Source: an uncultured archaeon
Lineage (GTDB): Archaea > Asgardarchaeota > Heimdallarchaeia > Heimdallarchaeales > Heimdallarchaeaceae
Direction of reading: 5' to 3'
DNA: 24,000 nucleotides
NCBI GenBank assembly: GCA_964534625.1
Contig: CAZHRF010000001.1
Location: 12,436-36,435 of the forward strand
Shown: positions 1-19,005 of the stretch, in pieces
Position numbering within the stretch: position 1 is the first letter of the stretch
Layout of the letters: each line of letters begins with the position of its first letter
Notes under the pieces: model-generated
Databases searched by the model: none
What the model saw: only the letters and a program-made list of their open reading frames with translations
Told to the model about the DNA's origin: nothing
Translations under genes and position numbers: made by a program

Positions 1-120
1 AGGCAAATTATGTGTAACTATAAGGCCACAAACGAGTACAATCGTTGGGAATGTATTTGTGGTGTTAATACTGTTTTAATTTATGTTAATAAGGTTATGC
101 GAGCCGTACAGAATAATAGA

Positions 121-1599
<1,479 letters not shown>

Positions 1600-1605
1600 A
1601 TGTTT

Positions 1606-1650
1606 GGAATAAAAGTTCAAGAGGTCATCTGACCTTTGAACTTCCATTCC
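1606..1650 (+). promoter_or_regulatory. Strong hairpin immediately downstream of 16S (trailer/processing or termination structure)
   Basis: GGAAT-AA-AAGTTCAA-G-AGGTC-ATCT-GACCT-TTGAACTT-CC-ATTCC folds into a nested stem beginning 7 nt after the mature 16S 3' end. Confidence 0.6.
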
Positions 1651-1832
1651 CTTATTATTACAATATTTGCTTAGGGTTCTTGTATTCTGTGGTTTTTTGA
1701 TTAAAAATTATTTCTTCAATTTTTTGACTTTTTATTCTCTTGTTGTTTTTATTAGTTTTTTATAGTATTCTTTTCTTCATATTTCTTCATCTTTCCATAA
1801 AAATTATTATAGAGAACGTTTTAACTTTAATT

Positions 1833-2234
1833 ATGAACTTTCAATCATCTCTCCCCACTCTAATTAAACAAGCAAAAAAAGCCTATTCTTTGGCTTTTGC
1901 GCCTTATAGTAATTTTAAAGTTGGAGCTGCTTTACTGACAGAAGATGGAAACATTTATTCTGGTTGTAATGTTGAATTTGCAGATTATTTAGTTTTACAT
2001 GCTGAGTTAAACGCAATTGGGTCTGCAGTAACTTCAGGCGAAACTAGTTTTGTAGCTATGGTTATTTATTCTAATCGCGAACCTCCTGTTCTCCCTTGTG
2101 GTTCTTGTAGACAAAAAATTTATGAATTTTCGGCTCTTCATAATACTGATATTAGAGTTATTGCTATTAATAATAATACTCAGATAAGTTCTTCGATAAA
2201 AACGCTTTTACCTGATGCAGATATTTTTAATTGA
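1833..2234 (+). CDS. cdd: Cytidine deaminase
   Basis: MNFQSSLPTLIKQAKKAYSLAFAPYSNFKVGAALLTEDG...GCNVEFADYLVLHAELNAI...PVLPCGSCRQKIYEF: cytidine deaminase HAE and PCxxC zinc motifs. The ATG at 1833 is preferred over the upstream TTG start at 1740, which would add a hydrophobic leader encoded by AT-rich intergenic-like sequence. Confidence 0.9.
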   Translation: MNFQSSLPTLIKQAKKAYSLAFAPYSNFKVGAALLTEDGNIYSGCNVEFADYLVLHAELNAIGSAVTSGETSFVAMVIYSNREPPVLPCGSCRQKIYEFSALHNTDIRVIAINNNTQISSSIKTLLPDADIFN

Positions 2235-2277
2235 TTTTTTAAAGTATTAAACACTTAAACGAAATCTACTTTTATGT

Positions 2278-2424
2278 TTATTCTATTACTTTATAATTCA
2301 TACAATTAGCACATAACCAGAAATCCTTCACTTCTTTCAATTCTATATCATCTGGAAGATAATCGTGTTTTTTGATCATTGTTCCCCCACATTTTGGACA
2401 TTTTTTTACATTTTCGTCATTCAT
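2278..2424 (-). CDS. Small zinc-ribbon protein (48 aa)
   Basis: Reverse-strand ORF MNDENVKKCPKCGGTMIKKHDYLPDDIELKEVKDFWLCANCMNYKVIE* with two CxxC pairs (CPKC...CANC). Absent from the supplied ORF track. Confidence 0.6.
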   Translation of the reverse strand: MNDENVKKCPKCGGTMIKKHDYLPDDIELKEVKDFWLCANCMNYKVIE

Positions 2425-2494
2425 TTGTTTTCACGAGATAATATTGAATACCACTATAAATTATTTCTGCATCTTAAGTTTTTTTCCTTCCTTA

Positions 2495-2532
2495 GTAGTT
2501 ACAAAATAGTACTGTAGTTACAAAATAGTACT
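2495..2532. repeat. Two tandem copies of a 19-bp unit
   Basis: GTAGTTACAAAATAGTACT at 2495-2513 and exactly repeated at 2514-2532, between the minus-strand zinc-ribbon ORF and the GC-rich RNA candidate. Confidence 0.85.
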
Positions 2533-2589
2533 CTATTTGTATGATTTTTGTGATGAGTTTTTTAGGCAGTTTTAGGAACTTACCTAAAA

Positions 2590-2945
2590 ATGTAGCACTT
2601 CACCCAACTGGCAACGTGACGAAGAGGAACATGATGTACCTGTAGTCAAGGAGTATACGAGAAGAATCCGGGAACAAAAGGACATACTGGTCCTGTGGCG
2701 ATAGAAGCACAGATGATACGGACAAGGCTAAATGGCACGACCTTAGCGCCCGTAAGCGGGTTCATTGCACTATTGACCCTGGGACTCATGGGTGGCCCAA
2801 CTAGGTTTAGTCAGTCATCCTTAGGAAGACTACCACCTCCAGGGCGACAGACTGGTCATTCACGGAGAAGAACCAGAAACTGTCTGGTACTGCGACCAAT
2901 GGCCGAGTACGGTGAAAGAACGGTATAAAGAGAGGGGGAAATAAG
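2590..2945 (+). ncRNA. Unassigned structured RNA candidate
   Basis: GC-rich island in AT-rich intergenic DNA with several nested hairpins: CCCTGG/CCAGGG (2777-2782/2839-2844), GGTGG/CCACC (2791-2795/2833-2837), TAGTC/GACTA (2808-2812/2828-2832), ACAG-a-CTGGT/ACCAG-aaa-CTGT (2847-2856/2872-2883), GTACT/AGTAC (2887-2891/2906-2910). Boundaries and strand are approximate. I could not match RNase P or SRP RNA signatures. Confidence 0.5.
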
Positions 2946-3469
2946 AGTGAGAATGAAGGTCTTTAATCGTTGAATACTTGGCCATAATTACATAGTTAAC
3001 AAACCGCCTGGCTATGTTCTTGGCACCATTTAAGTCAGCATGGCATAGGCTAAAATTTTCTTTAAGTGGATGGAATCCTTAAATGTTTTCTTAATTCGGA
3101 TTAGTACTATTACTAAAGCTAATTATGAATAAAAATCTGTTTTTTTACCATACGTCTTCTAGCGGGTGTAGAACAAACCAAGATTATAACATTTATACTA
3201 AAATAGAGCGTTTTGTAACAAACACAAATAAGGTGATGAATAAAAATGCCATAAGCATTAAGGTTCTATGAAAATGGAATTTGAGAGAAAAAAAAGATTG
3301 TGTGGAAAATATGCTGTGATTCAGTTTTAAAGCTTCCAATTAAGTAATGGAGTTTTCACATATTCAGAGCGTAACCTTCTTAAACACAACAATGCTTTAT
3401 CTCGTGTTTGATATATCTAGGTATGTCTGATTTAAATTAACAAGTATATACCTAGTTTATTGATGTAAA

Positions 3470-5377
3470 TTGAAGGTGAATATATTGAATCTTGAACAAT
3501 GGATCAACGAAAAAGATTTACAAAAACTTGAATCTCTTAATAATGAAAAAATTATGAAAGTAATCCATGATTTTTTATCCCTCTGTAAACCAAAAGAAGC
3601 TAAAGTAATAGATGACTCAAAAGAAGACATTGCTTCTGTTCGTCAATTAGCTATTAAAAATAGTGAAGAGCAGCAGTTGAAAATGGAAGGACATACGATA
3701 CATTTTGATGGTTTTTATGACCAAGCTAGGGACAAAAAAAACACTTGTATTTTAATTGATCCTGAAGAAAAGGATAAGTATGGTCCTCATCTTAATACAC
3801 TTCCTAGAACTGAAGGTTTAGATGAAATTTTAAATATCATGGATGGTTGTATGAAGAACAAAATTGCTCTAATCAGATTTTTCTGTTTAGGACCAACTAA
3901 CTCTTCATTCTCTCAATGTGCACTCCAAATTACTGATTCTGCTTATGTTGCTCATTCTGAAGACTTATTATATAGACGAGGATATGAAGAATTTAAAAGG
4001 CTTAAGGATCCTAATGATTTTTTTTATTTTATTCATTCAGCTGGTGAGTTGACCGATGCAAATGTCACTAAGAATGTAGATAAAAGGCGTATTTATGTTG
4101 ATTTACAAGAAAATCGTGTTCTTTCTGTAAATAATCAATATGCAGGTAATAGTCTTGGATTAAAGAAGCTTGCACTTCGATTGGCTATTAATAAAGCTAT
4201 TTACAATGGATGGTTAACTGAACACATGTTTATTTCTGGTATTCATTCTCCATTCAAAGAAAGAAAAAGTTATTTTTTGGGTGCATTTCCAAGTGCATGT
4301 GGAAAAACTTCTACTGCCATGGTACCTGGGAATACTATAGTTGGAGACGATATTGCATATCTTCGTTTAGATAATAAGAATATCCCAAAAGCTGTGAATA
4401 TTGAAAGTGGTATATTTGGAATTATAAAAGATGTTAATCCTAAAGATGACCCTGTTATATATAATACTCTCACTACAGAAAATGAATTGATATTTTCAAA
4501 TGTTTTGATTAATGATGGAACCCCCTATTGGATTGGAATGGGAGATCAAGTAGATATTCCCCAAAAAGGAACGAATTGGTCTTCATCTTTATTAGGTGAG
4601 TGGTATAAAGGAAAAAAAGGTCCAGATGGTAATGAATTACCCCCATCCCATCCAAATGCTAGATATACTATAAAAATTGAAGATCTTGAGAACTTTGATG
4701 AAACTTTACATGATCCCGAAGGCGTAATTGTTTCAGGAATTATTTATGGTGGTAGAGATTCTGATACTTCAGTACCTGTTTTTGAGTCATTTGATTGGGA
4801 ACATGGAGTTTACGTAGGTGCAACAATTGAATCCGAAACTACTTCTGCGACATTAGGTAAAACTGGTGTAAGAAAGCATAATCCAATGGCAAACCTTGAT
4901 TTCATTGTTGTTCCTCTTGGTGATTATATCAAGTCTCATCTAGATTTTGGAAAGAAAATACCTGATGACAATAGACCATGTATATTTTCAACTAACTATT
5001 TCTTGAAAGATGAAGATGGTCAATATTATGATGAAATTCTTGACAAGAAAGTTTGGTTATCTTGGGCAGAAGGGAGATATCATGGCGATTATGAAGCAAT
5101 TGAAACACCTATAGGTTACCTTCCAAAATATGAGGACTTAGTAGATCTTTTTCAAAACATTTTTGATAAACCATATGATAAAAAAAGATACCAAAAGGAA
5201 TTTTCTATAAGAGTTGATAAATTCCTCGAAAAATGTGATAGAATTGAAGAAAGTTTCAAACACGAGAACCTCCCCAATGAATTTTATACCCAGCATGACC
5301 TTCAGAAAAAAAGATTGTTAGATATAAAGAAAAAATATAACAAATCTATAATCTTTCCTTCCGATTTTATCAAATAG
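3470..5377 (+). CDS. pckG: Phosphoenolpyruvate carboxykinase (GTP)
   Basis: 635-aa ORF with GAFPSACGKTSTAM kinase-1 loop, GDDIAYL, NPKDDPVIYNTL, IYGGRDSDTSVPV and ATIESETTSATLGKTG, characteristic of GTP-dependent PEPCK. The start codon is TTG in the track; the true start is uncertain. Confidence 0.95.
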   Translation: MKVNILNLEQWINEKDLQKLESLNNEKIMKVIHDFLSLCKPKEAKVIDDSKEDIASVRQLAIKNSEEQQLKMEGHTIHFDGFYDQARDKKNTCILIDPEEKDKYGPHLNTLPRTEGLDEILNIMDGCMKNKIALIRFFCLGPTNSSFSQCALQITDSAYVAHSEDLLYRRGYEEFKRLKDPNDFFYFIHSAGELTDANVTKNVDKRRIYVDLQENRVLSVNNQYAGNSLGLKKLALRLAINKAIYNGWLTEHMFISGIHSPFKERKSYFLGAFPSACGKTSTAMVPGNTIVGDDIAYLRLDNKNIPKAVNIESGIFGIIKDVNPKDDPVIYNTLTTENELIFSNVLINDGTPYWIGMGDQVDIPQKGTNWSSSLLGEWYKGKKGPDGNELPPSHPNARYTIKIEDLENFDETLHDPEGVIVSGIIYGGRDSDTSVPVFESFDWEHGVYVGATIESETTSATLGKTGVRKHNPMANLDFIVVPLGDYIKSHLDFGKKIPDDNRPCIFSTNYFLKDEDGQYYDEILDKKVWLSWAEGRYHGDYEAIETPIGYLPKYEDLVDLFQNIFDKPYDKKRYQKEFSIRVDKFLEKCDRIEESFKHENLPNEFYTQHDLQKKRLLDIKKKYNKSIIFPSDFIK

Positions 5378-5605
5378 CATCTTAATTTGTCAATGAATAT
5401 AGTAGCCTTTAAAATTAGGCTCTATTATTTATTTTTTATACAAAATTCAAAAACTCTAATCTCATAAATGGTGTCTCGAATATTTAACGTACCGATTAAA
5501 ATGATCAAAACGTACACAGCAAAATTTTGAAACGTTTCATTTTTCTATTGAAATAATAAAGGTAAAAATATTTTTTAATGGTTGAATTTATTGTAGATTG
5601 ATAAT

Positions 5606-6133
5606 ATGACTGTTTTATGGAAACAACTAGAAACTGGTCCAAATCCACCTGAAGAGATTTATTGTATAATTGAAAATCCAAAAAATAATAAAAATAAATA
5701 TGAAATGAGTAAAGATGGTATAATTTATTTAGACCGGGTTTTACATTCCTCTGTTCATTTTCCTGGTGATTATGGATTAATCCCCCAAACGTATTATGAG
5801 GATGGTGATCCTCTTGATGTATTGGTCCTAATAACTGAACCAACATTTCCTGGTTGTGTGTTAATGGCGCGTCCTATTGGTGTTTTAAAGATGAAAGATG
5901 AGAAGGGATCTGATGATAAAATTTTAGCTGTAGCTTCTAATGATCCTTTATATATGAAGGTTCACTCTTTGAATGATATTTATCCTCATACAATAATTGA
6001 AATCGCTGAGTTTTTTAGAAGCTACAAAGGTCTTGAACCTTCAAAAAAAACTGAGGTTAAAGGTTGGGAATCTAAAGAAGCTGCTCTAAAAACGATAGTT
6101 GATTCAATGAAATTATATAATGAGCTATTTTAA
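5606..6133 (+). CDS. ppa: Inorganic pyrophosphatase (family I)
   Basis: MTVLWKQLETGPNPPEEIYCIIENPKN...KYEMSKDGIIYLDRVLHSSVHFPGDYGLIPQTYYEDGDPLDVLVL: classic soluble PPase active-site motifs (DGDPLDVLV). Confidence 0.96.
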   Translation: MTVLWKQLETGPNPPEEIYCIIENPKNNKNKYEMSKDGIIYLDRVLHSSVHFPGDYGLIPQTYYEDGDPLDVLVLITEPTFPGCVLMARPIGVLKMKDEKGSDDKILAVASNDPLYMKVHSLNDIYPHTIIEIAEFFRSYKGLEPSKKTEVKGWESKEAALKTIVDSMKLYNELF

Positions 6134-7040
6134 GGATAGCGCCTTATGCTTTCAATTTTTAAAATCTATAATTATTAAATCGAAACACACGATGAATAGT
6201 TCTGATATACTCACTATATGCTTAATCCATCTTATTCTTAACCAAATGTCTTTTTTTAATAATGATCCCTTCATTGTTTGATTTATTGAGACTCAATCAG
6301 AACTAATAATGACTTAATATCCAGTTACAAGACGTGTACTTGGTATAGGAGCCACTATACAATATATCAAGCAAGGTATAGTGTATCAACTATTCATTGA
6401 AACATAGTAAAAATGCATCTAGGCCTCACTCAACCTAACAAACGTAAATTTTTCAAAAGTTTAAAAAAAAGTATAAAAAAACATTAAGGTTTTTATAGTT
6501 TTCCTATACCATACTTTAATCTATAGGAACTAATGTAAAAGGACTTTGTCCGTCATGTCCATCATTTCTATGAGGACCATCGAATTTAGCTTTCATTTTG
6601 ATTTCACCCAATTTTTATTGGTAATTGAATAATAGAAGAAACATTCAAGATACCAACAGAAAAAAAGTGACAGTACATATGTAGAAATTATAGCTAGTTG
6701 GATTAAATCATAGTTGAAACAATCAAAGGAATCATAGAACAATATCTTTTTATCTTAGGCGAGATAAGTAAATATACGAACATCAAGTTCGTAAATTCTG
6801 ATATCTTACTTTAACCAGTAAGAAAATATTAATTTAAAATATTCATATCAATATGTATTTGTTGTTGATAATTGGTGTTTATGATCAAAACTCAAAGTAT
6901 AGTGGTAGTAATTTATATACTTACTTGAAAAAGTTAATGAACACTAATTTTATATATGTAACAAAAACAACAAAGAATGCATATAAGATTAGTATCAAAT
7001 CACCTCCTAGGATGAAAATCCACTAGTAATTACAATATCA

Positions 7041-7068
7041 AACTAGTTAGCTAACAAGAACTCTCCAA
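7041..7068 (+). promoter_or_regulatory. 5' strand of pre-23S processing stem
   Basis: AACTAGTTAGCTAACAAGAACTCTCCAA is complementary (26 Watson-Crick pairs, 1 G-U, 1 mismatch) to 10513-10540 flanking the other side of the 23S gene. Confidence 0.85.
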
Positions 7069-7103
7069 ATAGGCGAAAACTGAATTATTACTATTTTAAA
7101 GTA

Positions 7104-10100
7104 ACCTCAACTATGCATACGCCATGCAGTGGATGACTAGGCTAGGGTGCCGATGAAGGACGTGGTAAGCGGCGAAACGCTACGGGGAGGCGCATACAGC
7201 CATCGATCCGTAGGTCTCCGAATCGGATTTCCGGTTACAGTTGATAAGACTGTAACAACCAGTAATGGTGGGGAACGGCGGGAACCAAAACATTCAAGTA
7301 CCGCCAGGAAAAGAAAACAATCGTGATTCCGGTAGTAACGGCGAGTAAACCCGGAACAGGTCAAACCGAATGCCTATATTAATAATATGGGTGGATGTGG
7401 TGTTTTTGACTATCAAAGGATCGTCAGAGCTAAGTCGAAATAGCTTATGAAAGCTATGCCAAAGAAGGTAATAGCCCTGTAGACGTAAACTCTCGACCTG
7501 ATAGATTTCAAGATTAATGTGGCTTGGATTTGTCGCATGAATTTGGGAAAACTTAGTCCCAAACCTAAATACATCCCTAGACCGATAGCGAACTAGTAAC
7601 GTGAGTGAAAGTTGAAAAGTATTCGAAATACGAGAGTGAAAAGTCCCTGAAACTGTATGGTAACAGACGTGAATGGCTTAAAAGAGTAGATTCTGAGTGA
7701 AGGAAATCATTGTGAAGTGTGAGTACGAATTCAGAGGATCGAGGTCATTCGTTCCGTCTCGAAACACGGGCCGAGGAGTTTAAATCTGTGGCAAGACAAA
7801 ACATTAGTGGTGTCGTAGCGAAAGCAACCAGCACGCAGCCGTAAGGTCAGGTGCGACGTCCGACAAGGGCGTGAAGTCACAGGTTTAAGACCCGAAAGCA
7901 GTTGATCTATCCCTGGTCAAGATGAAGCGCTTCGAAAGGGGCGTGGAGGTCTGAAGAGGTATTGATATGCAATTCATTCTTCTGAATTGGGGATAGTGGC
8001 AAAAGACCAATCTAAACTGCTGATAGCTGGTTCCTCCCGAAGTATAACCACAGTATAGCGTCATTGGAGGTCGTATGTGCGGTAGAGCGACGGGTGGGGG
8101 TTTCCGTGGAGTGAAATCTGCGCGCCCCTTTCCAACTCCGAACTTGCATACACCATAGAAGATGATAGACGGGCGCATATCCGCAAGGGATATGGCCGAA
8201 AGGGGATCAACCCTACGATGGGTTAAGGGCCCTAAATCCCGGTTAAATGTTAAACAGAATGGCGTCCAACAGCGAAGACAATGAGGCGGTAAGCTTAGAA
8301 GCAGCTAACCGTTAAAAAAAGCGTAACAGCTTACTCATCGAGTTGTTGGGCCCAGAAAATGGACGGGGCTAAACCGGGTCCCGATACCTGTCCGGACTTC
8401 AAAAGAGTCTCGGGTAGGGAGGCGATCGGATTGGACAGAAGCTGGGAAGTGATTTCCAGTGGACCGTTCTGATTTGCAGATCTCGGCGGTAGTAGGAGCA
8501 TAGTGAGGTGGGAATCCTCATCGCCAAAAGCCCAAGGGTTCCTTGGCACTGTTCGTCAGCCAAGGGTTAGTCGGTCCTAAGGTGGAACTTAATACGACAA
8601 ACCGAAAGGGAAACAGGTTCATATTCCTGTACCATACGTATAGTCGCGGCAACGCAAGTTCCGAGCTGACACTAGTGGGTAGGTGGTCTAAAAATCAAAT
8701 TTTAGTTAAATCAAGAAATCTGGGAAGAACCGTTATGGTGAGAACCAGACGAATTGATGAATAGGCGAGCCATTGGTTGCTTGCTACCATTGATCCCAAT
8801 AGTCCGTGAAAAAGCGAAGAAAAATACGATTACGTATGACCGTACCCAGAACCGACACAGGTGTGGCTAGCTGAGAAGGCTAAGGCGTGTTAGGATAGTT
8901 TAGGTGAAGGAAATCGGCAAATTGGCCCCGTACCTTGGGTATAAGGGGTGCCTGGAAAGGTGAATGCCTTACCAGGTCGCAGTGACAAGGGGCACCCGAC
9001 TGTTTAATAAAAACATAGCAAACTGCAAGGGTGAAAACCTGTGTACAGTTTGTGAATCCTGGCCAGTGCAGGTGATTGAAACCGGGGTACAACTCGGCTA
9101 AGACCCTGTAAACGCCGGAGCTAACTATGAGCTTCTTAAGGTAGGCAAATGCCTAGTCTGCTAATTACAGACGTCCATGAAGGGACCAACGAGGTGCCCG
9201 CTGTCTCCACCTAAAACCTACTGAACCCACAGTCCAGCGAACAGTCTGGAACGCACCATCGGGAAGAGAAGACCCTGTGGAGCTTTACTGCTGTCAGGGG
9301 CTGTTATACTGGTGTGCATGCATAGAATAGTCAGGAGATGTTGATGGTGTGTTCTCCGGGACACACTGAAGTTGATCTTGAAATACTGACCATGTGCATT
9401 GGTATGACTTACCTCTTGCGAGGGGGACACCCCCTGCCTGGCAGTTTCACTGGGGCGGTAGCCTTTTGAAAAGATATCAAAAGGGCCCAAAGCCGAGCTC
9501 AACCGGGACAGAAATCCGGTGTAGAGTGCAAGGGCAAAAGCTCGGTTGACTGTGAATCCAATTAAACGGTTCGCAGATGTTAACGCAGGGCCTAGCGATC
9601 TTTCGCATTTGCCATATGTAGGCGGCGGAAGTGACAGAAAAGTTACCCCAGGGGTAACTGCACTTCTAAACGGAAGTGGCTTAAAAACTGGGTAACAATT
9701 ACATTTATTATCTTTCAAAAAGGTTTATCAAAAAGGCAAAAATTTTTGGGTCTTCCTAAACGATTTATATAGTGAGGAAATAGTCAAGTAACTTCAGTTA
9801 CAGGCCTATTGATTTGAGCAGATAGATTAACCTGATATTAAGAAACCATCAGAACACAGTAAAACTATAAGAGCCATTATTCCGTGAGTGAACGATAGAT
9901 AGGTTAAGAGATTGGTAACTTGCCTTTACAGGCCGACAACTGGTCTCTAATAACCGATGTGCAAAAATATTTTGTGCAAGTGCAGCCCTGAACAGAGTTG
10001 TCGTGGGTAAGAGTTCACATCGACCTCACGGCTTGCTACCTCGATGTCGGCTCTTCCTAGCTTGGTGGTGATTAAGCCACCAAGAGTGGGGTTGTTCGCC

Positions 10101-10480
10101 CATTAAAAGGGAACGTGAGCTGGGTTTAGACCGTTGTGAGACAGGTTGGATTCTATCTGATGGTGCTGGCGGGCGATTGAGAGCAAAATCTCCACAGTAC
10201 GAGAGGAACAGGCGGTTGGGGCCGCTGGTGTACCGGTTGTTCTAAAGAGCATTGCCGGGTAGCTAAGCCCTTGACGATAAGAGCGGAAAGCATCTATGCT
10301 CGAAGCGTTTCTCAAAACGAGTCGCCCATTCTGCTCTATTCTGGGGACTGGTGACAGTAACCTTAAGAGTAGACGAGAGCGCGGAAAAAAGATCCGTTTG
10401 ATAGAGCGGGGGTGTAAGCGTCGAGCTTTGGCGAGATGTTTAGCCTACCGCTACTAACTGCTCAAGCATAGTTAGGCCAA
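7104..10480 (+). rRNA. 23S ribosomal RNA (interrupted near its 3' end)
   Basis: Conserved LSU segments: CCGATGAAGGACGTG (~7149), CTGATAGCTGGTTCCTCC (~8020), AACTATGAGCTTCTTAAGGTAGGCAAATG (~9122), GAAGACCCTGTGGAGCTTTACTG (~9268), GTTACCCC (~9642), CTACCTCGATGTCGGCTC (~10036), GAGCTGGGTTTAGACCG (~10107), CACAGTACGAGAGGAAC (~10193). Terminal helix AACTATGC...GCATAGTT. Confidence 0.97.
9656..9990 (+). other. Putative self-splicing (group I-like) intron in 23S rRNA at the site equivalent to E. coli 2449
   Basis: The conserved core AGTTACCCCAGGG(A/G)TAACAGAG...GTCGTGGG is split: AGTTACCCCAGGGGT | 335 nt | AACAGAGTTGTCGTGGGTAAGAGTTCACATCGACC. The preceding exon ends in U and the insert ends in G, as in group I introns. 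No BHB motif fits. The P3/P7 core was not resolved by eye. Confidence 0.7.
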
Positions 10481-10512
10481 ATGAAGTGGTAATATTCAGT
10501 TGCTAAATACTT

Positions 10513-10540
10513 GGAGAGTTCTTGTTAATTAACTAGTTAT
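10513..10540 (+). promoter_or_regulatory. 3' strand of pre-23S processing stem
   Basis: TTGGAGAGTTCTTGTTAATTAACTAGTT pairs with 7041-7068. An inner stem, 7078-7091 with 10491-10503, continues toward the gene. Confidence 0.85.
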
Positions 10541-10650
10541 TTTTTATTTATTGCTTTTAAATTTCAAAGTGAGACATACAGATTTATTTTTGTAAAATTT
10601 TTATAAAAATGCGTGATGTGGAGTTTTTATATAATAAATAGATACTAATT

Positions 10651-13467
10651 TTGATTAACTCAAAGAGAAGATATAAATTGATATCAAAAAAATATAAAAA
10701 CAATTCATCCGGAAATCATTCAATCATTGCATTACTCTGGAAATTATTTTGTGGTTTTTTGAGGTTCCTTTTACCATACATTAATTCGTTTTTAGTGGGT
10801 TTTTTTATTCTATTAGTATTATTTCCTTCTACAATTGACTATTTTCCTAAAAGTAACTTTAGAAATGTTTTTCTCATTTTTAAAAGTATATTATCATTGA
10901 ACTTAACCATGTATATATTTTCCTATGAGTGGATCCATTATTTTTGTATAACTATAGTTGTAATTTTATTTTTATTTTGTACTAAATTTTTACCATACAG
11001 GGTATGTATCAAAGATAATGTGTATTACCAGAAGAAAACTTTTTTCCCCTTATATCGCTCTTTTAGTATTATTGCCGTGAAATCTCCTTTAGACTCTTAC
11101 TTTCTTAAAAATGATCGTTATGCAAAAACAATTCATCATGACTTTATTGAGCATCTCTCAAAAAATCTATCAAAGTATAACTTATTGATTACTAAGATTC
11201 AATCTAACGATGGGTCTATATTTGGTTCTGATGTTCCTTTTTTTTTGGTTATACCAACGACAAGTTTTTTTAGACATAATCTCATTAAAAAAACAGAAGC
11301 CAATCTACTATTTGTAAAACACTCATTGAAAGTTTTCTACGATGCCACTTCGACCGTTTTAACACCGGATGAAATTGACTGGTTCTTCAATTTTTTAAAC
11401 AGTTATAAACACCGAACTGTATTTTCTCCATCATATAAAGAAACAAAGATCCCAAATTTGACTGAACATATTTATTCATTATTTATAAATGAAACTATAG
11501 GCGATGCACAGTTTCTTTTCCATATTTCAAAAATAAATGAACATGACTATTATTTATGTGCTTCATGTCTAACTAGTAACAAAGAAACTAGTACTAAAAT
11601 ATATGAAACCATTGGTTTTAAACACAAAAAAAATTATCATATCCCCTTCAATAGAATTCAAAACATTCAAGCATTTTTTTCAACAGCGATCTCTAAAAAA
11701 ACAAGATTTAAAATAAGTCTAAATAATTTAAGTAATTATATTCATATACCCAATGGATATCTTGGTACTATAATAAAAAGAAAAGAGTTTTTAAGTACAA
11801 GTTTGACTTCAGAAAAGGATAAAATAGTTCTAGGGAATACTACTGATAATTTATCTTTTCCTATTTGTTTAAAAAAAGAAGATTTACTTTTCAACATAGA
11901 AATTTATGGCATGGTTGGGCGCGGAAAGACTCAATTAGTTAGTCTGATTTTAAAACAACTAATTAGTATAGATGTAAATATGTTAATTTTTGATATCAAA
12001 GGAGAATATGCCAGAGAATATGTTCAAAATCCAAATGTAGAAATTTATACTATAGGGCGTCCAAATCCCTTGTGTGTTAATGTTTTTGAGACTCAAGATG
12101 AAGACGATGTTCGTAGCACATTACTGATCTTAGAAGAAATGCTGAAAACATCTAATCAAGATTTTTCTCCTGCTATGAAAAATCTATTCGAAACTGCACT
12201 ATTTTTAACACATAAAACTAAAAGAAGACATCTTAAAACGTTTATAGAAAATCTAATAGACGTCACATCAAATCTCCGTATTCAAGGCAACAGTAATTAT
12301 GTCCAACAGACATTAGATGCTGTTTTAAATCGGTTAAATTTTATTTTCAATCCTATAAATTTTGATATATTTGGTGTTTCAAGAACCACTCTCGATTTTA
12401 CTAAATTTGAAAATGGAAAAACTATAATATTGGATTTTTCAGAGTTCCAAAGGAGGGCAGCAAGACCTTCTGATATATATCTCATTTGTAATATAATATT
12501 AAAAATGTTCTATAGATATGCAACGAGTAGAGGTGTGACAAATAAACTTAGATATCTAGTTGTACTTGAAGAGGCGGTAAATATTATTCCTAGAATATAT
12601 ACGAATGAAAGTTCGGCTTCTTTAATAAGCTCAGAAAACAACTTTTTGTTGGGAAGAAACCTTGGAATTGGCCATATAACTATTTCACAAATGTGGGATA
12701 GCGTTAGTAAGATTGTTCATGGTAATTCTTCTACAAAAATTATTTTTAGAAGTAGTGAAAAAACCGATAAAATAGCTCGTGCATTGAATATTGGAGAAGA
12801 TGAAATAAATAATTTACATAAATTACCAATTCAGCATTGTTATGTATTCAAAGACGGTTTTGAAAAAGCTTTGGAACTTAAAACAAATAATATTTCAACG
12901 AACTCTTACAATTACTCTAATTATCTCTCTCTACTAAGAAGAAAATATCCATCACGTCAATATCCCTTGTTGTATGAAAATTTTATTGAAATGCGAACAT
13001 CACTTTATAAACAAGTAAATAAAATTCAGACTTTTGAAAAGGACAAATCTTCTCAATCGGACCATTATCCTATAGAGCGAAATAAGAATGAAAATCTATC
13101 ATCTGTTAATAGATCAATATATCATAATCAAAGTACTATTACTATAGATCAATTATATCAAGATGATATTTGTAACCAATTATGCCAATTAAGTAATCAT
13201 TCTGTTCACTGTTATAAGGGCAAATACATTGCTATGATGTTTGTTGGAGAACTTCAAAAAAGATATAAGGATAAAGAATTACTAAATATAGTATTTAATT
13301 GCGACCTCTTTAATTCTGTTACTAGCCATGTAGAAAAAAATATTGGTATAAATATAGATCAACCAATAAAATTTTGTATCATTCAAAACCTAATATTCGA
13401 CTTACTAAAAAAAACGAATCTGTCTGAAAATAATGCAGTACAAATACTGAGAAAATATGTAGAATAA
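10651..13467 (+). CDS. Membrane-anchored HerA/VirB4-like ATPase (conjugation/translocation-type P-loop ATPase)
   Basis: 938-aa ORF with several hydrophobic N-terminal segments (FLRFLLPYINSFLVGFFILLVLFP; WIHYFCITIVVILFLFC), Walker A YGMVGRGKTQ, MLIFDIKGEYAREY, RYLVVLEEAVNIIP (Walker B-like), LGRNLGIGHITISQ and KIIFRSSEKTDKIARALNI. The start codon (TTG) is uncertain. Confidence 0.8.
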   Translation: MINSKRRYKLISKKYKNNSSGNHSIIALLWKLFCGFLRFLLPYINSFLVGFFILLVLFPSTIDYFPKSNFRNVFLIFKSILSLNLTMYIFSYEWIHYFCITIVVILFLFCTKFLPYRVCIKDNVYYQKKTFFPLYRSFSIIAVKSPLDSYFLKNDRYAKTIHHDFIEHLSKNLSKYNLLITKIQSNDGSIFGSDVPFFLVIPTTSFFRHNLIKKTEANLLFVKHSLKVFYDATSTVLTPDEIDWFFNFLNSYKHRTVFSPSYKETKIPNLTEHIYSLFINETIGDAQFLFHISKINEHDYYLCASCLTSNKETSTKIYETIGFKHKKNYHIPFNRIQNIQAFFSTAISKKTRFKISLNNLSNYIHIPNGYLGTIIKRKEFLSTSLTSEKDKIVLGNTTDNLSFPICLKKEDLLFNIEIYGMVGRGKTQLVSLILKQLISIDVNMLIFDIKGEYAREYVQNPNVEIYTIGRPNPLCVNVFETQDEDDVRSTLLILEEMLKTSNQDFSPAMKNLFETALFLTHKTKRRHLKTFIENLIDVTSNLRIQGNSNYVQQTLDAVLNRLNFIFNPINFDIFGVSRTTLDFTKFENGKTIILDFSEFQRRAARPSDIYLICNIILKMFYRYATSRGVTNKLRYLVVLEEAVNIIPRIYTNESSASLISSENNFLLGRNLGIGHITISQMWDSVSKIVHGNSSTKIIFRSSEKTDKIARALNIGEDEINNLHKLPIQHCYVFKDGFEKALELKTNNISTNSYNYSNYLSLLRRKYPSRQYPLLYENFIEMRTSLYKQVNKIQTFEKDKSSQSDHYPIERNKNENLSSVNRSIYHNQSTITIDQLYQDDICNQLCQLSNHSVHCYKGKYIAMMFVGELQKRYKDKELLNIVFNCDLFNSVTSHVEKNIGINIDQPIKFCIIQNLIFDLLKKTNLSENNAVQILRKYVE

Positions 13468-13678: not shown

Positions 13679-15763
13679 ATGATTGATCTACCAACATTTT
13701 ACACAATAGGTATATCAGAAAAACCTCAAGCTGCAAGAAGGATTGCTTGGGCTTTGGATGAAAAAAATGATCCTCAGTTTTATCGTCTTAATGGTGTTCC
13801 AATCTATCAATGTGAGAGAGGAGGAAGAATAATTATTATCGTTCCTGCTGTTGGTCATCTATTCACTCTTGATCAAATTGGGAAAACATGGAACTATCCA
13901 ATCTTGGATTATGAATGGCTTCCTACTTATAAAAAATCTTCAAAATCTTATACAAAAAAATTCGTTGAAGTTTTTAAATTATTAGCTGAAGAAGCTAATG
14001 ATGCAATAGTAATGACTGACTATGATAGGGAGGGTGAAGTAATTGGATACTTGATTTTAAAATATCTTCTTAAGAAAAAAGTTGCGGAAAGAATGAAATT
14101 TTCAACTTTAACTAAACGCGATATAATAGATGCATATAAGAAAAAAGATCCATATTTAAACAAAGGACTATTAAATTCAGGGCTCATTAGACATTATGTA
14201 GATTGGCTTTTTGGCATAAATTATACAACAGCATTGAGTACATCACTAAAAAAAACCACAGATAAGTTTAAAACCATTTCAATCGGTCGCGTTCAAGGTC
14301 CAACTTTAGGGTTCGTTATTGATAAAGAGGAAGAAATTAATTTGTTTATGCCTACTCCTTATTGGAGGATTCATTCATCAGTACTTATTGATGGTGAGAC
14401 CTATGAACCCATATATGAAAAAAAAGAAATAGAAACTAAAAATGCAGCGAATGAAATAGTAAATGATTGCTTCAGATTGAAAGGTGTTGTTAATGAAATT
14501 ACTGAAAAAAAGAATGTTCTCTATCCTTTCCCTCCTTATAATCTTAGCCACTTACAACGTGATGCGTATTTTTATCTTAAATACTCGCCAAGTAAAACTC
14601 TTGAATTAGCAGAAAAACTATATCTAAAAGCATTAATATCTTATCCTAGAACTGATAGTCAAAAATTACCTATGAAACTAGGTCATAAAAAAATCTTAAT
14701 AAAACTAAAAACGCAAAACGAATATTCAGATTTTATCTCGGAAATTTTAAAACGAAAAAAATTCAAGCCAATAGAAGGAAAAAAAACTGATGCTGCGCAT
14801 CCCGCTATTCATCCAACTGGGAAAAAACCTAGTGCTACCCTATCTGAAGAAGAGAAGAAAATATATGACATGATTATTAAAAAATATCTCTCTTTATTTG
14901 GTCCAAAGGCGATTCAAAGGGTAGTAAACTTCGAAATTATGATAGATTTTCATAAGTTTTCAATTGAAGGTAAAAAAATTACCACTAAAGGTTGGATAAA
15001 ATATGCAACACCTTATGTTTTCTATACTGATACACCTATTCCCAATTTGGAACTAAAACAGATTATAAAATTTGATCTTATAGAAAGTAAAGAAGAGTTT
15101 TCTGAACCACCCAGACGGTATAATGAATCTTCTCTTCTTCAAGAGATGGAAGCGAATGGACTTGGAACTAAAGCAACAAGAGCTTCTATTATTGAAACTT
15201 TATTTAAAAGGGGCTACATAGGAGGAGGTATTATTACTCCTACTGAATTGGGTATTGCAGTTGTTGATGTTCTTAAAATACATTATTCTATTATAGTGCA
15301 GACAAAAATGACAAAGAAGTTAGAAACATTGATGGAAGACATTAAAAACCGAGAAACAAATGTAGAAGAAGAAATATTAAGGATCAAGCAGGATTTGTTT
15401 AAAGATCTAAAATCCTTTCATGATAAAGAAACAGAAATTGGACTTTCACTCTATGAAAATATTAGAGAACTTGAGGAACATGACATTATTATCTTAGGTC
15501 AATGTCCAAGATGTAAAACTGGTAATTTAAGAGTTTTAAAATCTAAAAAGTCTGGAAAGTTATTCGTAGGTTGTAGTTCTTATTATGAATCAGATATTAA
15601 GTGTGAACTAACTTTTCCAGTACCTTATGGAACAAATTTCAAACCCACTAATGAAATTTGTCCTCATGATAATTTACCATTAATCGAAAAGAGAAATAAT
15701 GGAAATAAAAAGTTAGTATGTATCTCTCCTGATTGTGATTATTGTATTGATAGGAGTGATTAA
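13679..15763 (+). CDS. topA: DNA topoisomerase IA with C-terminal zinc-finger region
   Basis: Toprim motifs (ISEKPQAARRIAWAL; VMTDYDREGEVIGYLI), SIGRVQGPTLGFV, catalytic LISYPRTDSQKLP, MEANGLGTKATRASIIETLFKRGYI, and C-terminal CPRCKTGNL/CSSYYESDIKCELTFP Cys clusters. Confidence 0.95.
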   Translation: MIDLPTFYTIGISEKPQAARRIAWALDEKNDPQFYRLNGVPIYQCERGGRIIIIVPAVGHLFTLDQIGKTWNYPILDYEWLPTYKKSSKSYTKKFVEVFKLLAEEANDAIVMTDYDREGEVIGYLILKYLLKKKVAERMKFSTLTKRDIIDAYKKKDPYLNKGLLNSGLIRHYVDWLFGINYTTALSTSLKKTTDKFKTISIGRVQGPTLGFVIDKEEEINLFMPTPYWRIHSSVLIDGETYEPIYEKKEIETKNAANEIVNDCFRLKGVVNEITEKKNVLYPFPPYNLSHLQRDAYFYLKYSPSKTLELAEKLYLKALISYPRTDSQKLPMKLGHKKILIKLKTQNEYSDFISEILKRKKFKPIEGKKTDAAHPAIHPTGKKPSATLSEEEKKIYDMIIKKYLSLFGPKAIQRVVNFEIMIDFHKFSIEGKKITTKGWIKYATPYVFYTDTPIPNLELKQIIKFDLIESKEEFSEPPRRYNESSLLQEMEANGLGTKATRASIIETLFKRGYIGGGIITPTELGIAVVDVLKIHYSIIVQTKMTKKLETLMEDIKNRETNVEEEILRIKQDLFKDLKSFHDKETEIGLSLYENIRELEEHDIIILGQCPRCKTGNLRVLKSKKSGKLFVGCSSYYESDIKCELTFPVPYGTNFKPTNEICPHDNLPLIEKRNNGNKKLVCISPDCDYCIDRSD

Positions 15764-15764
15764 G

Positions 15765-16010
15765 ATGACGGAACTAGAAAAAAGAAAAAGATGTGTTATC
15801 TGTAATAGAAGAAAACTTAACCATTCAATATATTGTATTAAGCATTTTGATGCAAAAAAGATTTTGATGAAATATTATGAGCAATGGCAAAGAGCTTATG
15901 GAGTTTTATCTTGGGAATCTTATATTCAAAAAGTGCTAAAAATTGAAGATAAAGTAGGTATTTGGATAATAGAAGTTATCAAACACGAATTATATTTCAA
16001 ACCATCGTAA
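15765..16010 (+). CDS. Small Cys/His-containing protein of unknown function (81 aa)
   Basis: MTELEKRKRCVICNRRKLNHSIYCIKHFDAKKILMKYYEQWQRAYGVLSWESYIQKVLK...: CxxC...CxxH putative zinc knuckle. Starts 1 nt after the topA stop. Confidence 0.75.
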   Translation: MTELEKRKRCVICNRRKLNHSIYCIKHFDAKKILMKYYEQWQRAYGVLSWESYIQKVLKIEDKVGIWIIEVIKHELYFKPS

Positions 16011-16356
16011 TATCTAAAACGTTTATTAAAAAGTAATTATTGCGTATAAAATCATAATCAGACAACACATAGGGAAACAAGATAAAAGGCAAAAAGTAGT
16101 ACGAAATACTAATGGTTGATATTGTAAAGTATAGATTTTGGTGAAAATTTAGTACTTGCGAAATAGTGCTTTACTTGTATAATTTATGTGGTAGAATACG
16201 CTAAATACACTTTAAATGGATAGAACATTGAATATTTTCTTCATTTGGAAGTACTAAAATATAACTATACAAGAAATTGAACCAATTGCTCGAGATCACA
16301 TTAATTTTTACTATAAATTAATGTGATATATTTACTCTAGATCCTTCCTTAATAAT

Positions 16357-16605
16357 CTAAGAGAAAAGTGCAGTATGTATTTGATCCAATTCTGGTATTC
16401 CTTCAAGCATTACATCACCAACAATAATTGTTGGTAGTGATTTTATTGATTTTACTCTAGTATTATGTTTTTGTTTTTTTTTATCTATGTGAATACTAGT
16501 ATAAGTAAATAACCCTTTATACTGTTCAATAGCTTCTCTTAATCGTTCTTCTGCTAAAGTACAATATGGGCATTCACTTGAAGTATATAAAATGATTTTT
16601 TTCAT
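16357..16605 (-). CDS. Glutaredoxin/thioredoxin-fold protein
   Basis: MKKIILYTSSECPYCTLAEERLREAIEQYKGLFTYTSIHI...VKSIKSLPTIIVGDVMLEGIP: CPYC active site and cis-Pro (SLPTI). Confidence 0.85.
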   Translation of the reverse strand: MKKIILYTSSECPYCTLAEERLREAIEQYKGLFTYTSIHIDKKKQKHNTRVKSIKSLPTIIVGDVMLEGIPELDQIHTALFS

Positions 16606-16700
16606 TTTTTGTTCATTTATTTTCACTTAACGTTCCTTAAAAAAATCATCAATAAAAACTGGACTCAAAACTTTCTTTTTTGTGTTAGTTTAGACTTGAT

Positions 16701-16961
16701 TTATATCTTACATCTACATGGATTAAAATGGCATTTTGGACAGTTTTTATTATATTTTTCTGTTGTGACCATCTGTGTATCAATTTCAAGCAAATTTGCC
16801 AGACTTAGTGTCCATGCTATAACATCTGCAATCTCTTCTTCTATTTTTCTTCTGTCCTTTAGTAAAAGTGCTTCTGATAGTTCTCCAATCTCTTCAATAA
16901 GTTTTAAAAAAGTTTTATATAAGCCTCTGTTTTTATCTTTTTCATAAAATAATTCCATCAT
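16701..16961 (-). CDS. MazG-like nucleotide pyrophosphohydrolase with C-terminal Cys cluster
   Basis: LIEEIGELSEALLLKDRRKIEEEIADVIAWTLSLANLLEID (ExxE...ExxD MazG metal-binding pattern), ending NCPKCHFNPCRCKI. Confidence 0.85.
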   Translation of the reverse strand: MMELFYEKDKNRGLYKTFLKLIEEIGELSEALLLKDRRKIEEEIADVIAWTLSLANLLEIDTQMVTTEKYNKNCPKCHFNPCRCKI

Positions 16962-17014
16962 GAGTTTTTGTAAGTTTTTTATTTATCTCACCCTCTGTAA
17001 AAACTCTTAAAATG

Positions 17015-17203
17015 TTATTGAAATGTTATTGTGATATTACCTACAAACACAGCTATGATTAGTATAATGGCTGTAGCAACAACAAACCACGGACCTACTT
17101 TTACACCTGGTAAATCTTCGTCATAATACCTCATGAGCCCAGCACCTGTTGCTGGCATTGGACTTGATTCTTTTTTCTTTGTTCTTCTCCTTGACTTACT
17201 CAT
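17015..17203 (-). CDS. Preprotein translocase subunit Sec61-beta (SecG-like)
   Basis: MSKSRRRTKKKESSPMPATGAGLMRYYDEDLPGVKVGPWFVVATAIILIIAVFVGNI: basic N-terminus, GLxRYYxED-like motif and a single TM segment. Confidence 0.88.
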   Translation of the reverse strand: MSKSRRRTKKKESSPMPATGAGLMRYYDEDLPGVKVGPWFVVATAIILIIAVFVGNITITFQ

Positions 17204-17280
17204 TTTTAACCATGTTCATCCTTTGAATATATATTTATATGGTTTTTCATAATCAATAAATTTTGTAAAAAAAATATTGT

Positions 17281-17357
17281 TGGCGATCCCGATGAGATTT
17301 GAACTCACGACCCCCAACTTAGAAGGCTGGTGCTCTATCCTGCTGAGCTACGGGATC
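17281..17357 (-). tRNA. tRNA-Arg (anticodon UCU)
   Basis: Reverse complement GATCCCGTAGCTCAGCAGGATAGAGCACCAGCCTTCTAAGTTGGGGGTCGTGAGTTCAAATCTCATCGGGATCGCCA: full cloverleaf, encoded CCA. Confidence 0.96.
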
Positions 17358-17478
17358 TATTTTCTCTTTTAACTTTACTTCAATCTTTTTGATTGCTATA
17401 TTAAACTTTTTGATTCTAGGCTACTATTTTATTTCGAAAATTATATAATGATATGTTCTCTCTTCTTTTTGTATATTA

Positions 17479-19005
17479 ATGGATTCCTCTCAGATTTTAA
17501 AGAAATTATTCGCTGCTGGATATCAACTGACACCAGAGGCTTATGAATTTCTTGTATCGTTATCTTCTAAAAGAGTTATTATCGAAAGAATAATTAAATC
17601 TAAATCAGATTCTTTTTTACTAACAATAGACGAAATAAATAGTTTTAGAGAACAGGCAATAGATGAAAGTAATTCTAAAAAAAAGAATATTCTTGAAACA
17701 GAACAATCTCCGTTTAGCGAAGATAAAAAAACAAATCAATTCTCCAATTTGATATCAAATAAACAAGAAATAAATATTGAAATAATTTATTCACCAAATG
17801 CAGTTCCACCACCTCCTTCTACAACAAGTTTCCAAAAATATTTTACAAGTCGATATTTGCAAGTATCATCATTATTTAAAGGAAGAAAAGATATTACAAA
17901 CATTGTTGGATCTTCAAGCTTATTAAATAAAATCAAGATAAACTCTATGTCTTTTATTGGTCTGATTAAATCAAAGACATTCACTCGGAAGGGATCTTTT
18001 ATTCTTGAAATAGAAGATTTGGAAGGTTCGATTAAGGCATTGATTCCTTCTTCAAAACCTGATCTAATTCAACAATCCCATTATATCCTAAATGATTCGG
18101 TTCTCTGTTTTAAAGGTACCTGGTCTAAAGATATCTTGTTTGTGAATGAAATTAATTGGCCTGATATACCCTATACTCACAAACCCAATCGTTCTGATAT
18201 TGATGTTTGTGCACTTTTTCTTTCTGACATACACATTGGTTCAAAGCAGTTTTCAAATGTTCTTTTTCAAAAAGTAATTGATTTCGTCAATGGAAAACTA
18301 AAAGATTCACAATATAGATCTGTAGGTGAAAAAATAAAATATATTTTTATTGCAGGTGATTTAGTTGAAGGTGTAGGTGTGTATCCAGGTCAAGAAAATG
18401 ATTTAGTAGTAGATAATATTCATATGCAATATTTTTTGGCGAGTGAATTTATAGAGAAAATCAGATCTGACATAGAAATTTTTGTTATACCGGGAAACCA
18501 CGATGGTGCAAGATTTGCTGAACCCCAAACACCTATCTTGAGAGATTATGCTAATGAATTATATGAGTTGAAGAATGTACGTCTTTTAGGCAGTCCAGCT
18601 TATATTAAAGTTTCAGGAGTTGAAATTCTTATGAACCATGGAAATTCCATAATAGATATTAATGCTGCTATACCCAATATTAACCATGCAAGTTCAGTTC
18701 CTGCGATGGTTGAAATATTGCGCAATAGACATTTGGTTCCTATATATGGCCAAAGAACCCCAATTGCACCAGAAGCTGAGGATTCCTTATTCTTATCCCG
18801 AATACCTGATGTTTTTCATACAGGACATACTCATTTAGCTGCAGATGGGTATTATAAGGGAATAACTCTGATAAATTCGGGAACATTTCAACTACAAACA
18901 GATTATCAAAAAAGTATGAATATAAATCCAAATACGGGTATTTCATACATTATGAACTTAAAGACCCTCCAACGGACACGAATCGATTTTAACCAAATTA
19001 TGTAA
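17479..19005 (+). CDS. DNA polymerase D small subunit (DP1)
   Basis: C-terminal phosphoesterase motifs ALFLSDIHIGSKQF, FIAGDLVEGVGVYPGQ, FVIPGNHDGARFAEPQTP, LMNHGNSI, VFHTGHTHLAADGYYKG, LINSGTFQLQTDYQK, as in archaeal PolD DP1. Confidence 0.95.
   Translation: MDSSQILKKLFAAGYQLTPEAYEFLVSLSSKRVIIERIIKSKSDSFLLTIDEINSFREQAIDESNSKKKNILETEQSPFSEDKKTNQFSNLISNKQEINIEIIYSPNAVPPPPSTTSFQKYFTSRYLQVSSLFKGRKDITNIVGSSSLLNKIKINSMSFIGLIKSKTFTRKGSFILEIEDLEGSIKALIPSSKPDLIQQSHYILNDSVLCFKGTWSKDILFVNEINWPDIPYTHKPNRSDIDVCALFLSDIHIGSKQFSNVLFQKVIDFVNGKLKDSQYRSVGEKIKYIFIAGDLVEGVGVYPGQENDLVVDNIHMQYFLASEFIEKIRSDIEIFVIPGNHDGARFAEPQTPILRDYANELYELKNVRLLGSPAYIKVSGVEILMNHGNSIIDINAAIPNINHASSVPAMVEILRNRHLVPIYGQRTPIAPEAEDSLFLSRIPDVFHTGHTHLAADGYYKGITLINSGTFQLQTDYQKSMNINPNTGISYIMNLKTLQRTRIDFNQIM

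Follow-up and report, generated by a model that had tools for sequence, protein, structure and literature searches.

Results

An insert in the peptidyl-transferase loop of a Heimdallarchaeal 23S rRNA gene

The 24,000-nucleotide (nt) stretch of DNA analysed here, called the window throughout, comes from an uncultured archaeon of the Heimdallarchaeaceae (Asgardarchaeota; positions 12,436 to 36,435 of contig CAZHRF010000001.1, assembly GCA_964534625.1) and carries the genes of both large ribosomal RNAs (rRNAs), the second of which is interrupted by a 335-nt insert, the subject of this study:

120-1599, plus strand: archaeal small-subunit (SSU, 16S) rRNA gene, identified with Rfam.
7105-10477, plus strand: archaeal large-subunit (LSU, 23S) rRNA gene (Rfam RF02540, 2419.5 bits over model positions 1-2987), complete but for the insert.

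Aligned to the archaeal LSU model of Rfam, the 23S gene has one large insertion, in the segment of the domain V central loop (the peptidyl-transferase loop). The sequence at the junctions runs ...GUUACCCCAGGGGU(9655) AAC UGCACUUC ... GUGCAGCCCUG(9990) AAC AGAGUUGUCGUGGGUAAGAGUUCACAUCGACC, with an upstream exon that ends in ...GACAGAAAAGUUACCCCAGGGGU(9655) and a downstream exon that begins with AACAGAGUUGUCGUGGGUAAGAGUUCACAUCGACC; because AAC is present at both junctions there are four equivalent boundary registers (intron start 9656-9659), and the insert is 335 nt long in every one of them. No open reading frame (ORF) of at least 50 amino acids (aa) lies inside the insert, which wholly contains only two, of 23 aa; two longer ORFs that run into it from the exon were taken as spurious. 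A first-pass annotation of the window, generated by a model, had described the same two exon halves in the peptidyl-transferase core, had held that the insert is an intron needing removal from the peptidyl-transferase loop, and had called it small and free of a homing-endonuclease ORF, all of which the Rfam alignment, our reading of the sequence, and the ORF search bear out. The boundaries it gave, 9656-9990, stand as one of the four sequence-equivalent registers, while the geometry described below selects 9657-9991.

The rejoined exons read GGGGUAAC, unlike the usual GGGAUAAC. The variant CCCCAGGGGUAAC (window 9644-9658), which replaces CCCYGGGGAUAAC, is common to Heimdall-type sequences and to intron-less 23S genes of Korarchaeota and Thermoproteota (loci L023, L039, L047, L074, and L095), and because intron-less genes have it we regard it as a natural variant and no sign of a wrong junction; the exon variant at locus L142 is CCUCAGGGGUAAC. 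We take CCCCAGGGGUAAC to have A at 2444 and G at 2448 in E. coli numbering, and this G at 2448 makes possible the fourth pair of the central helix described below. In the same numbering the intron delimited by that helix presumably sits between A2450 and A2451, one nucleotide away from the classical group I site L2449.

A bulge-helix-bulge motif at the junctions

In a single one of the four registers the junctions take the form of the motif called bulge-helix-bulge (BHB), with a central helix (H) of four base pairs (bp) between two 3-nt bulges and an intronic helix (h') next to it:

9657-9991, plus strand: predicted BHB-delimited intron of 335 nt, with cuts at 9656/9657 and 9991/9992; the only register of four with BHB geometry.
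9651-9654, plus strand: 5' strand of H, exon GGGG, pairing with CCCU at 9986-9989 (24 of 24 cells paired in six lineages).
9655-9657, plus strand: 5' splice-site bulge UAA, 3 nt between H and h', invariant in six lineages; predicted cut after A9656.
9658-9665, plus strand: 5' strand of h', CUGCACUU, forming 8 bp with AAGUGCAG at 9978-9985.
9978-9985, plus strand: 3' strand of h', AAGUGCAG, partner of 9658-9665.
9986-9989, plus strand: 3' strand of H, intron CCCU, partner of the exon GGGG.
9990-9992, plus strand: 3' splice-site bulge GAA, invariant in six lineages; predicted cut after A9991.

The geometry was calibrated on canonical intron-containing tRNAs found with ARAGORN in fetched archaeal loci (tRNA-Ala and tRNA-Cys in L045, tRNA-Arg in L096, and tRNA-Ala in L112), under the rule that H pairs exon positions -6 to -3 with intron positions -6 to -3, that a bulge comprises the last two nt upstream of a cut and the first one downstream, and that the cut falls after the second bulge nt. 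On the calibration tRNAs this rule gives 4/4 H pairs and an anticodon (outer) stem of 5-6 bp; on the four registers of the window it passes 9657-9991 alone. The bulges UAA and GAA lie on opposite strands, 4 bp apart, each 3' of its helix strand, and the predicted cuts rejoin GGGGUA-ACAGAG, which is both the LSU consensus and the sequence of intron-less relatives. Among 4.7 million site pairs in the window, the background rate of a motif with 4/4 central and at least 5 inner pairs is 2.7e-4. The first-pass annotation had found no register compatible with a canonical BHB, which is contradicted by 9657-9991, a 3-4-3 BHB conserved with compensatory changes in six lineages. Junction mini-substrates of three homologues (L041, L124, and L125) adopt the motif in unconstrained folding; when full-length sequences are folded, the BHB conformer is 3-6 kcal/mol less stable than the minimum-energy structure, largely because the truncated context allows an exon hairpin, GUUACCC/GGGUAAC, to form.

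In the strict form of the motif, hBHBh', an exonic helix (h) with two or more Watson-Crick pairs closes off the 3' bulge (PMC7714728). For h' the same threshold of at least two pairs applies, and it is 8 bp long, with 47 of 48 cells paired across the six lineages. On the exon side, neither the sequence nor constrained and mini-substrate folds gave any pairing between 9646-9650 and 9993-9997, and a more distant exon-exon helix, GGCGGC with GUUGUC, was seen in the mini-substrate folds. As there is no exon-exon outer helix, we assign the motif to the relaxed HBh' form, which still belongs to the BHB family (PMC3239211, PMC6379350), with a helix on either side of the 5' bulge and the 3' site placed after H. 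A motif of this form would need an endonuclease of broad specificity: HBh' motifs are efficiently cut only by (αβ)2 and ε2 endonucleases (PMC3239211, PMC6379350), and Asgard genomes are reported to encode an (αβ)2 EndA with an L1 loop, a feature linked to a broad specificity that takes in relaxed BHB motifs (PMC5829648).

Homologous introns at the same site

Homologous introns occupy the same site in L041, L107, L124, L125, and L142/L143, which with the window gives six lineages. The first two, from an archaeal metagenome-assembled genome (MAG) and a Candidatus Heimdallarchaeota MAG, respectively, came from a scan of a genome collection with the pattern GAAAAGYTACCCYRGGGRTAACB, which proved too loose (at least 120 matches, mostly natural A2453U/G variants); among the matches listed only these two were of use, and the record of the window itself was absent. 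L124 and L125 came from a metagenome scan, another match of which (L121) was rejected as due to chance, no LSU rRNA being present there. A walk from the pyrophosphatase gene of the window reached L142, where a full-length LSU gene (15361-18784, 2489 bits) holds a homologous intron of 389 nt (L142:17911-18299) on a contig with genes identical to those of Candidatus (Ca.) Heimdallarchaeum aukensis. Walks from the HerA-like ATPase gene downstream of the 23S gene added no intron copies because the contigs end in rRNA or synteny is lost. Nothing else in the window is significantly similar to the intron, no further copies were present in 137 fetched loci, and viral contigs scanned with the pattern of its conserved 3' domain (see below) gave no match.

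Across the six lineages the junctions follow the consensus GGGG[UAA]CURCRYUU ... (A/U)(A/G)GYGYAG CCCY[GAA]C, and 71 of the 72 base-pair cells of the BHB in our alignment (A3) are standard pairs. Compensatory changes occur at two pairs of columns, both in h': 22/438 (A-U in three lineages, G-C in three) and 20/440 (A-U only in the H. aukensis type, G-C in the other five); three further BHB pairs have one-sided, wobble-compatible changes, the outer pair of H is G-U in five lineages and G-C in one, and all six bulge nucleotides are invariant. The BHB score was reached by 4 of 500 shuffles, and pairing fell to 32-51% when the partner strand was slid by 1-3 columns.

A conserved fold inside the intron

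Between lineages whose 23S exons are 81-92% identical, the introns share 56-70% identity, and 117 intron columns, about one third, are invariant among five sequences. The elements of the interior are as follows:

9661-9678, plus strand: local hairpin CACUUC/GAAGUG (9661-9666 with 9673-9678), in the same place and with compatible changes in six lineages.
9677-9682, plus strand: 5' strand of a long-range intron helix, UGGCUU, pairing with GAGCCA at 9871-9876.
9688-9696, plus strand: conserved block CUGGGUAAC, a near copy of exon CAGGGGUAAC, which with the next few nt can pair with the intron 3' end.
9871-9876, plus strand: 3' strand of the long-range helix, GAGCCA, partner of 9677-9682.
9902-9978, plus strand: conserved 3' domain (RNAalifold, six sequences: 22 pairs, 9 with compensatory changes).
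9902-9905 with 9952-9955, plus strand: 3'-domain helix GGUU/AACC (RNAalifold).
9909-9916 with 9939-9946, plus strand: 3'-domain helix AGAUUGGU/ACUGGUCU (RNAalifold).
9922-9925 with 9930-9933, plus strand: 3'-domain helix GCCU/AGGC (RNAalifold).
9958-9962 with 9974-9978, plus strand: 3'-domain hairpin UGUGC/GUGCA (RNAalifold).

In the homologues the long-range helix takes the forms GCUCUC/GAGAGC, CGGCUC/GAGCCG, and UGGCU/AGCCA, its outer pair changing from U-A to C-G, and a further intron hairpin, (G/A)CAGA/UCUG(U/C), varies between G-U, A-U, and G-C. The local hairpin and the GCUU that follows it (9679-9682) are where the first-pass annotation had placed them. RNAalifold favours the pairing of CUGGGUAAC with the intron 3' end, in which the covarying column is one shared with the BHB; the block is not universal, being absent from the H. 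aukensis-type intron (L142). Complementarity to the exons makes some other conserved intron blocks candidates for pairing with them (GGGUAAC/GGUAAC with GUUACCC, and GACAACUG with CAG(AG)UUGUC), in columns that are invariant. A possible loop-loop pairing of UCACGU with GCGUGA is strong in three lineages only, and weak in the window and L125.

No Rfam family matched the intron, searched alone and as four homologues, and several more specific identities were tried and rejected. A C/D-box small RNA was suggested by GUGAGGA with CUGA (snoR28 match, E=4.4); in the homologues GUGA-GGAA is a hairpin loop plus its 3' strand, and no fitting terminal stem or guide arrangement was found. Readings of the conserved blocks as a K-turn or as RNase P-like are unsupported by the sequence or by Rfam. 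Nor does CUGGGUAAC mark a nested or twin intron: it pairs with the 3' end around a 2x2 loop, forming no 3-nt bulges, and has no counterpart in L142.

The conserved internal fold shared with its relatives is the sole unusual feature of the intron. Read most simply, the fold would help to organise or time the structure at the splice sites, or would stabilise the intron after excision, probably as a circle. Our best guess is the organising or timing role, since two conserved elements are in competition with strands of the BHB.

Neighbouring genes and other features of the rRNA locus

The 16S and 23S genes lie 5.5 kb apart (1600-7104), with protein genes on the same strand between them, and the window further encodes a PolD small subunit and a row of eukaryote-like genes for STT3, Roadblock, and UFM1-E3/PCI-like proteins:

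1740-2234, same strand as the rRNAs: cytidine deaminase, between 16S and 23S.
3470-5377, same strand as the rRNAs: GTP-dependent phosphoenolpyruvate (PEP) carboxykinase, between 16S and 23S.
5606-6133, same strand as the rRNAs: inorganic pyrophosphatase, between 16S and 23S.
10651-13467, directly downstream of 23S: HerA/DUF87-type ATPase of 938 aa, with a long hydrophobic, poorly conserved N-terminal half.
19055-19477: Roadblock/LC7 protein, in the eukaryote-like row.
19681-21939: STT3/AglB oligosaccharyltransferase, in the eukaryote-like row.
22235-23005: protein of 256 aa with weak PCI and UFM1-E3-ligase-like matches, in the eukaryote-like row.

The pyrophosphatase is 72-77% identical to proteins of Ca. 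Heimdallarchaeum aukensis and the Heimdallarchaeaceae, which together with the gene content of the window marks the host as a Heimdallarchaeia-type Asgard archaeon. Cytidine deaminase, PEP carboxykinase, and pyrophosphatase genes are also found near the 23S gene in H. aukensis-type contigs (L140/L142), in other order and orientation, and near the 23S 5' end in L145. The order of 23S followed by a HerA/DUF87-like ATPase is kept in L041, in L124, and loosely in L107, and not in H. aukensis; in two relatives, L134 (4964-6532) and L136 (3088-4692), a TnpB/Cas12f-like (PF07282) gene comes after the HerA-like gene, and none is present at the corresponding place in the window.

Three observations concern rRNA genes outside the intron. 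Near the 3' end of the window's 23S gene, 44 nt at 10329-10372 (uucugcucuauucuggggacuggugacaguaaccuuaagaguag) are inserted relative to the archaeal LSU model and may be a small expansion segment of the helix 98/ES39 region, a region enlarged in Asgard archaea. A long inverted repeat on either side of the gene (6960-7105 and 10466-10650) folds into a processing stem, with a cofold energy of -96 kcal/mol. As an in-window control we looked for a 3-4-3 BHB in this stem and in that of the 16S gene; only ambiguous AT-rich candidates emerged, e.g., with cuts after 6983 and 10596, and the result was left out of the evidence. Two Altiarchaeota 23S genes (L072 at about 7026 and L097 at about 3264, both on the minus strand) break off after ...GCAAGAGUACAC, where unrelated sequence follows, about 25 nt downstream of the present intron site, in what looks from the sequence like a different intron at a neighbouring peptidyl-transferase position.

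Discussion

We consider it highly probable that the 335-nt insert is an archaeal BHB intron, removed by the tRNA-splicing endonuclease, and not a self-splicing group I intron. On the evidence of sequence and comparison, the first eight paired intron bases of the precursor rRNA, CUGCACUU, would pair with AAGUGCAG near the intron 3' end, and the exon's last four G's with the intronic CCCU, leaving the 3-nt bulges UAA and GAA around a 4-bp helix. EndA would then cut after the second nt of each bulge, at A9656 and A9991, and by the established pathway an RtcB-type ligase would join GGGGUA to ACAGAG and probably circularise the 335-nt intron; the predicted ligated junction is GGGGUA followed by ACAGAGUUGUCG, and the sequence spanning it would be GGGGUAACAGAG. 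The first-pass annotation had itself named a BHB motif cleaved by the tRNA endonuclease as the finding that would overturn a group I assignment, and such a motif is what sequence and comparison point to.

Several observations weigh against this interpretation. The exonic helix of the strict motif is lacking in the window, where 9650/9993 is A·C and 9649/9994 is C·A, and in L041 and L107 it is weak, with two C-G pairs beyond the A·C mismatch. The local hairpin shares nt 9661-9665 with the 5' strand of h', so that the two are mutually exclusive, and in the H. aukensis-type intron (L142) the hairpin has 9 bp to the 7 bp of h'; because a conserved hairpin competes with h', the BHB is not the sole conformer and perhaps not the most stable one. 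The alternative pairing of CUGGGUAAC(R) with the 3' end is possible in five of the six lineages, with 95% of cells paired. Neither an EndA nor an RtcB gene lies within the 24-kb window, the covariation statistics are limited at n=6 sequences, and cleavage, ligation, and a circular intron are predictions from sequence and comparison.

A separate matter is what the conserved interior represents. That its core, which is conserved and in part pseudoknotted, makes up a functional RNA in its own right together with the two conserved competitors of the BHB strands (e.g., a folding switch that times splicing in 50S assembly, or a stable circular RNA), or is the relic of a group I ribozyme, seems to us doubtful. 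One version of this idea, which we rate as improbable, is a hybrid, spliced by the endonuclease at the BHB around a core that is a decayed group I or other ribozyme, as in the transitional form of Tocchini-Valentini et al.; that BHB introns derive from group I introns is a hypothesis summarised in PMC6125680. That about a third of the intron columns are invariant, at 56-70% identity, suggests that more of the intron RNA than the 12 bp of the BHB is under selection; the site is one nucleotide from the classical group I position, and there are long-range helices and a possible loop-loop pairing in three lineages. However, no likeness to any Rfam family is detectable, the helices cannot be mapped in their topology onto P3-P7-P8, neither the window nor L125 has more than a weak form of the loop-loop pairing, and the conserved fold may merely present the BHB or reflect shared ancestry.

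Alternatively, one could envision a divergent group I intron that splices itself at L2449, with GGGU/GCUU as guide pairing and its last G as omega-G, essentially as the first-pass annotation had proposed while leaving room for another intron type; only the latter half of that proposal survives here, and we find the group I half very improbable. In the LSU rDNA of nuclei and organelles, group I introns are known at L2449 (PMC3511172), archaeal LSU genes do contain group I introns, and the single group I model of Rfam misses divergent subgroups (PMC6125680). The intron has a conserved multi-helix fold; a U precedes the insert and a G ends it in all six lineages, and the tetramer after the first hairpin is GCUY in five of them (GCUA in the H. 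aukensis type), giving a possible P1 of GGGU with GCUY in five lineages (three pairs in L142) that would carry a 5-nt asymmetric loop. Nevertheless, the model Intron_gpI (RF00028), a check the annotation had suggested, reaches only a chance-level 13.9 bits (E=1.3) on 9600-9803, starting 56 nt inside the exon, with no match in the intron alone and none at the gathering threshold or at E<=10 in L041, L107, L124, and L125. The proposed guide GCUU (9679-9682) is better explained as part of the long-range helix that covaries with GAGCC/GAGAGC. No P7 arrangement, with one strand just 5' of the 3' strand of the long-range helix and the other after the following hairpin, was found, and mapping P1, P3, P7, and P8 by hand onto the covarying helices gave no core. 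The boundary U and G, which had been read as the group I signature, are accounted for as the first nucleotides of the BHB bulges UAA and GAA; G9990, at the omega-G position, is invariant but is equally the first nt of the 3' bulge.

A lasting break between A2450 and A2451 would fall in the catalytic centre of the ribosome. That the insert is excised with the exons left unjoined, giving a fragmented 23S rRNA, or that this copy of the gene is a pseudogene, is hardly credible to us, for although cutting of archaeal 23S rRNA at BHB-like motifs, with new ends as the outcome, has a precedent in the circularly permuted 23S of P. furiosus (PMC7758197) and the window itself shows nothing on ligation, the gene is otherwise full length (2419 bits), six lineages keep the interrupted arrangement and show signs of selection on the helices at the splice sites, and one of the six, on a contig with H. 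aukensis-named genes, has a full-length LSU gene (2489 bits).

If the insert is a BHB intron, its position implies that in Heimdallarchaeia, which among archaea are usually placed nearest to eukaryotes, the precursor of an rRNA is a substrate of the tRNA-splicing endonuclease and ligase, and this at the ribosome's catalytic centre. In practical terms, Asgard 23S genes with this intron will be mis-sized, mis-aligned, or split by rRNA annotation, primer-design, and phylogenetic pipelines unless 9657-9991 is removed. The intron also supplies a defined natural relaxed-HBh' substrate, with 3-4-3 spacing, for the Asgard enzyme; HBh' motifs are already known from tRNA and cbf5 introns. For an archaeal rRNA intron that has no ORF, a conserved interior of this kind is unusual, and it offers a small handle on function versus ribozyme descent; were the core a ribozyme relic, the proposed group I-to-BHB transition would have a living representative in the archaeal lineage nearest to eukaryotes.

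The literature searched, the coverage of which was incomplete, held no description of this Asgard 23S intron family. Among known systems, group I introns at L2449 and archaeal group I introns (PMC3511172, PMC6125680) share with it essentially the same insertion point, a similar size, a U before and a G at the end of the insert, and a structured RNA; in contrast to them, covariance-model searches of five family members detected no core, the BHB explains the boundary nucleotides, and none of the archaeal group I introns reported so far (LSU 1923, 1931, 2500, and 2593; SSU 1498; PMC6125680) is located at the present site. The HBh' introns of the non-canonical tRNA type and of the cbf5 pre-mRNA (PMC3239211, PMC6379350, PMC5829648) likewise have a 5' bulge closed by H and h' and a 3' cut site after H without a closing exonic helix, and are cut by (αβ)2 or ε2 EndA, the former reported with an L1 loop for the Asgard superphylum; here, by contrast, a 23S precursor would be the substrate, the length is 335 nt where tens of nt are found in those introns, and cleavage is a prediction. 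Closest are the BHB introns of archaeal rRNA genes, including short ORF-less ones, long known in Crenarchaeota and their relatives (PMC4496867, PMC6125680). Like those of Crenarchaeota and the TACK superphylum (e.g., 23S of Desulfurococcus, Pyrobaculum, and Aeropyrum; 16S of Thermoproteales; PMC4496867), the present intron lies at a highly conserved rRNA site within a junction BHB of 3-nt bulges and a 4-bp helix, and cutting at the predicted positions would yield the mature rRNA. That group, too, includes ORF-less "remnant" forms, and a stable fold is common to both. It differs in its host, a Heimdallarchaeia-type Asgard archaeon, in the absence of the exon-exon helix (the relaxed HBh' form), and in an internal sequence and fold that are conserved across lineages, whereas the folds of 16S introns have been reported to lack general conservation within an insertion site (PMC4496867).

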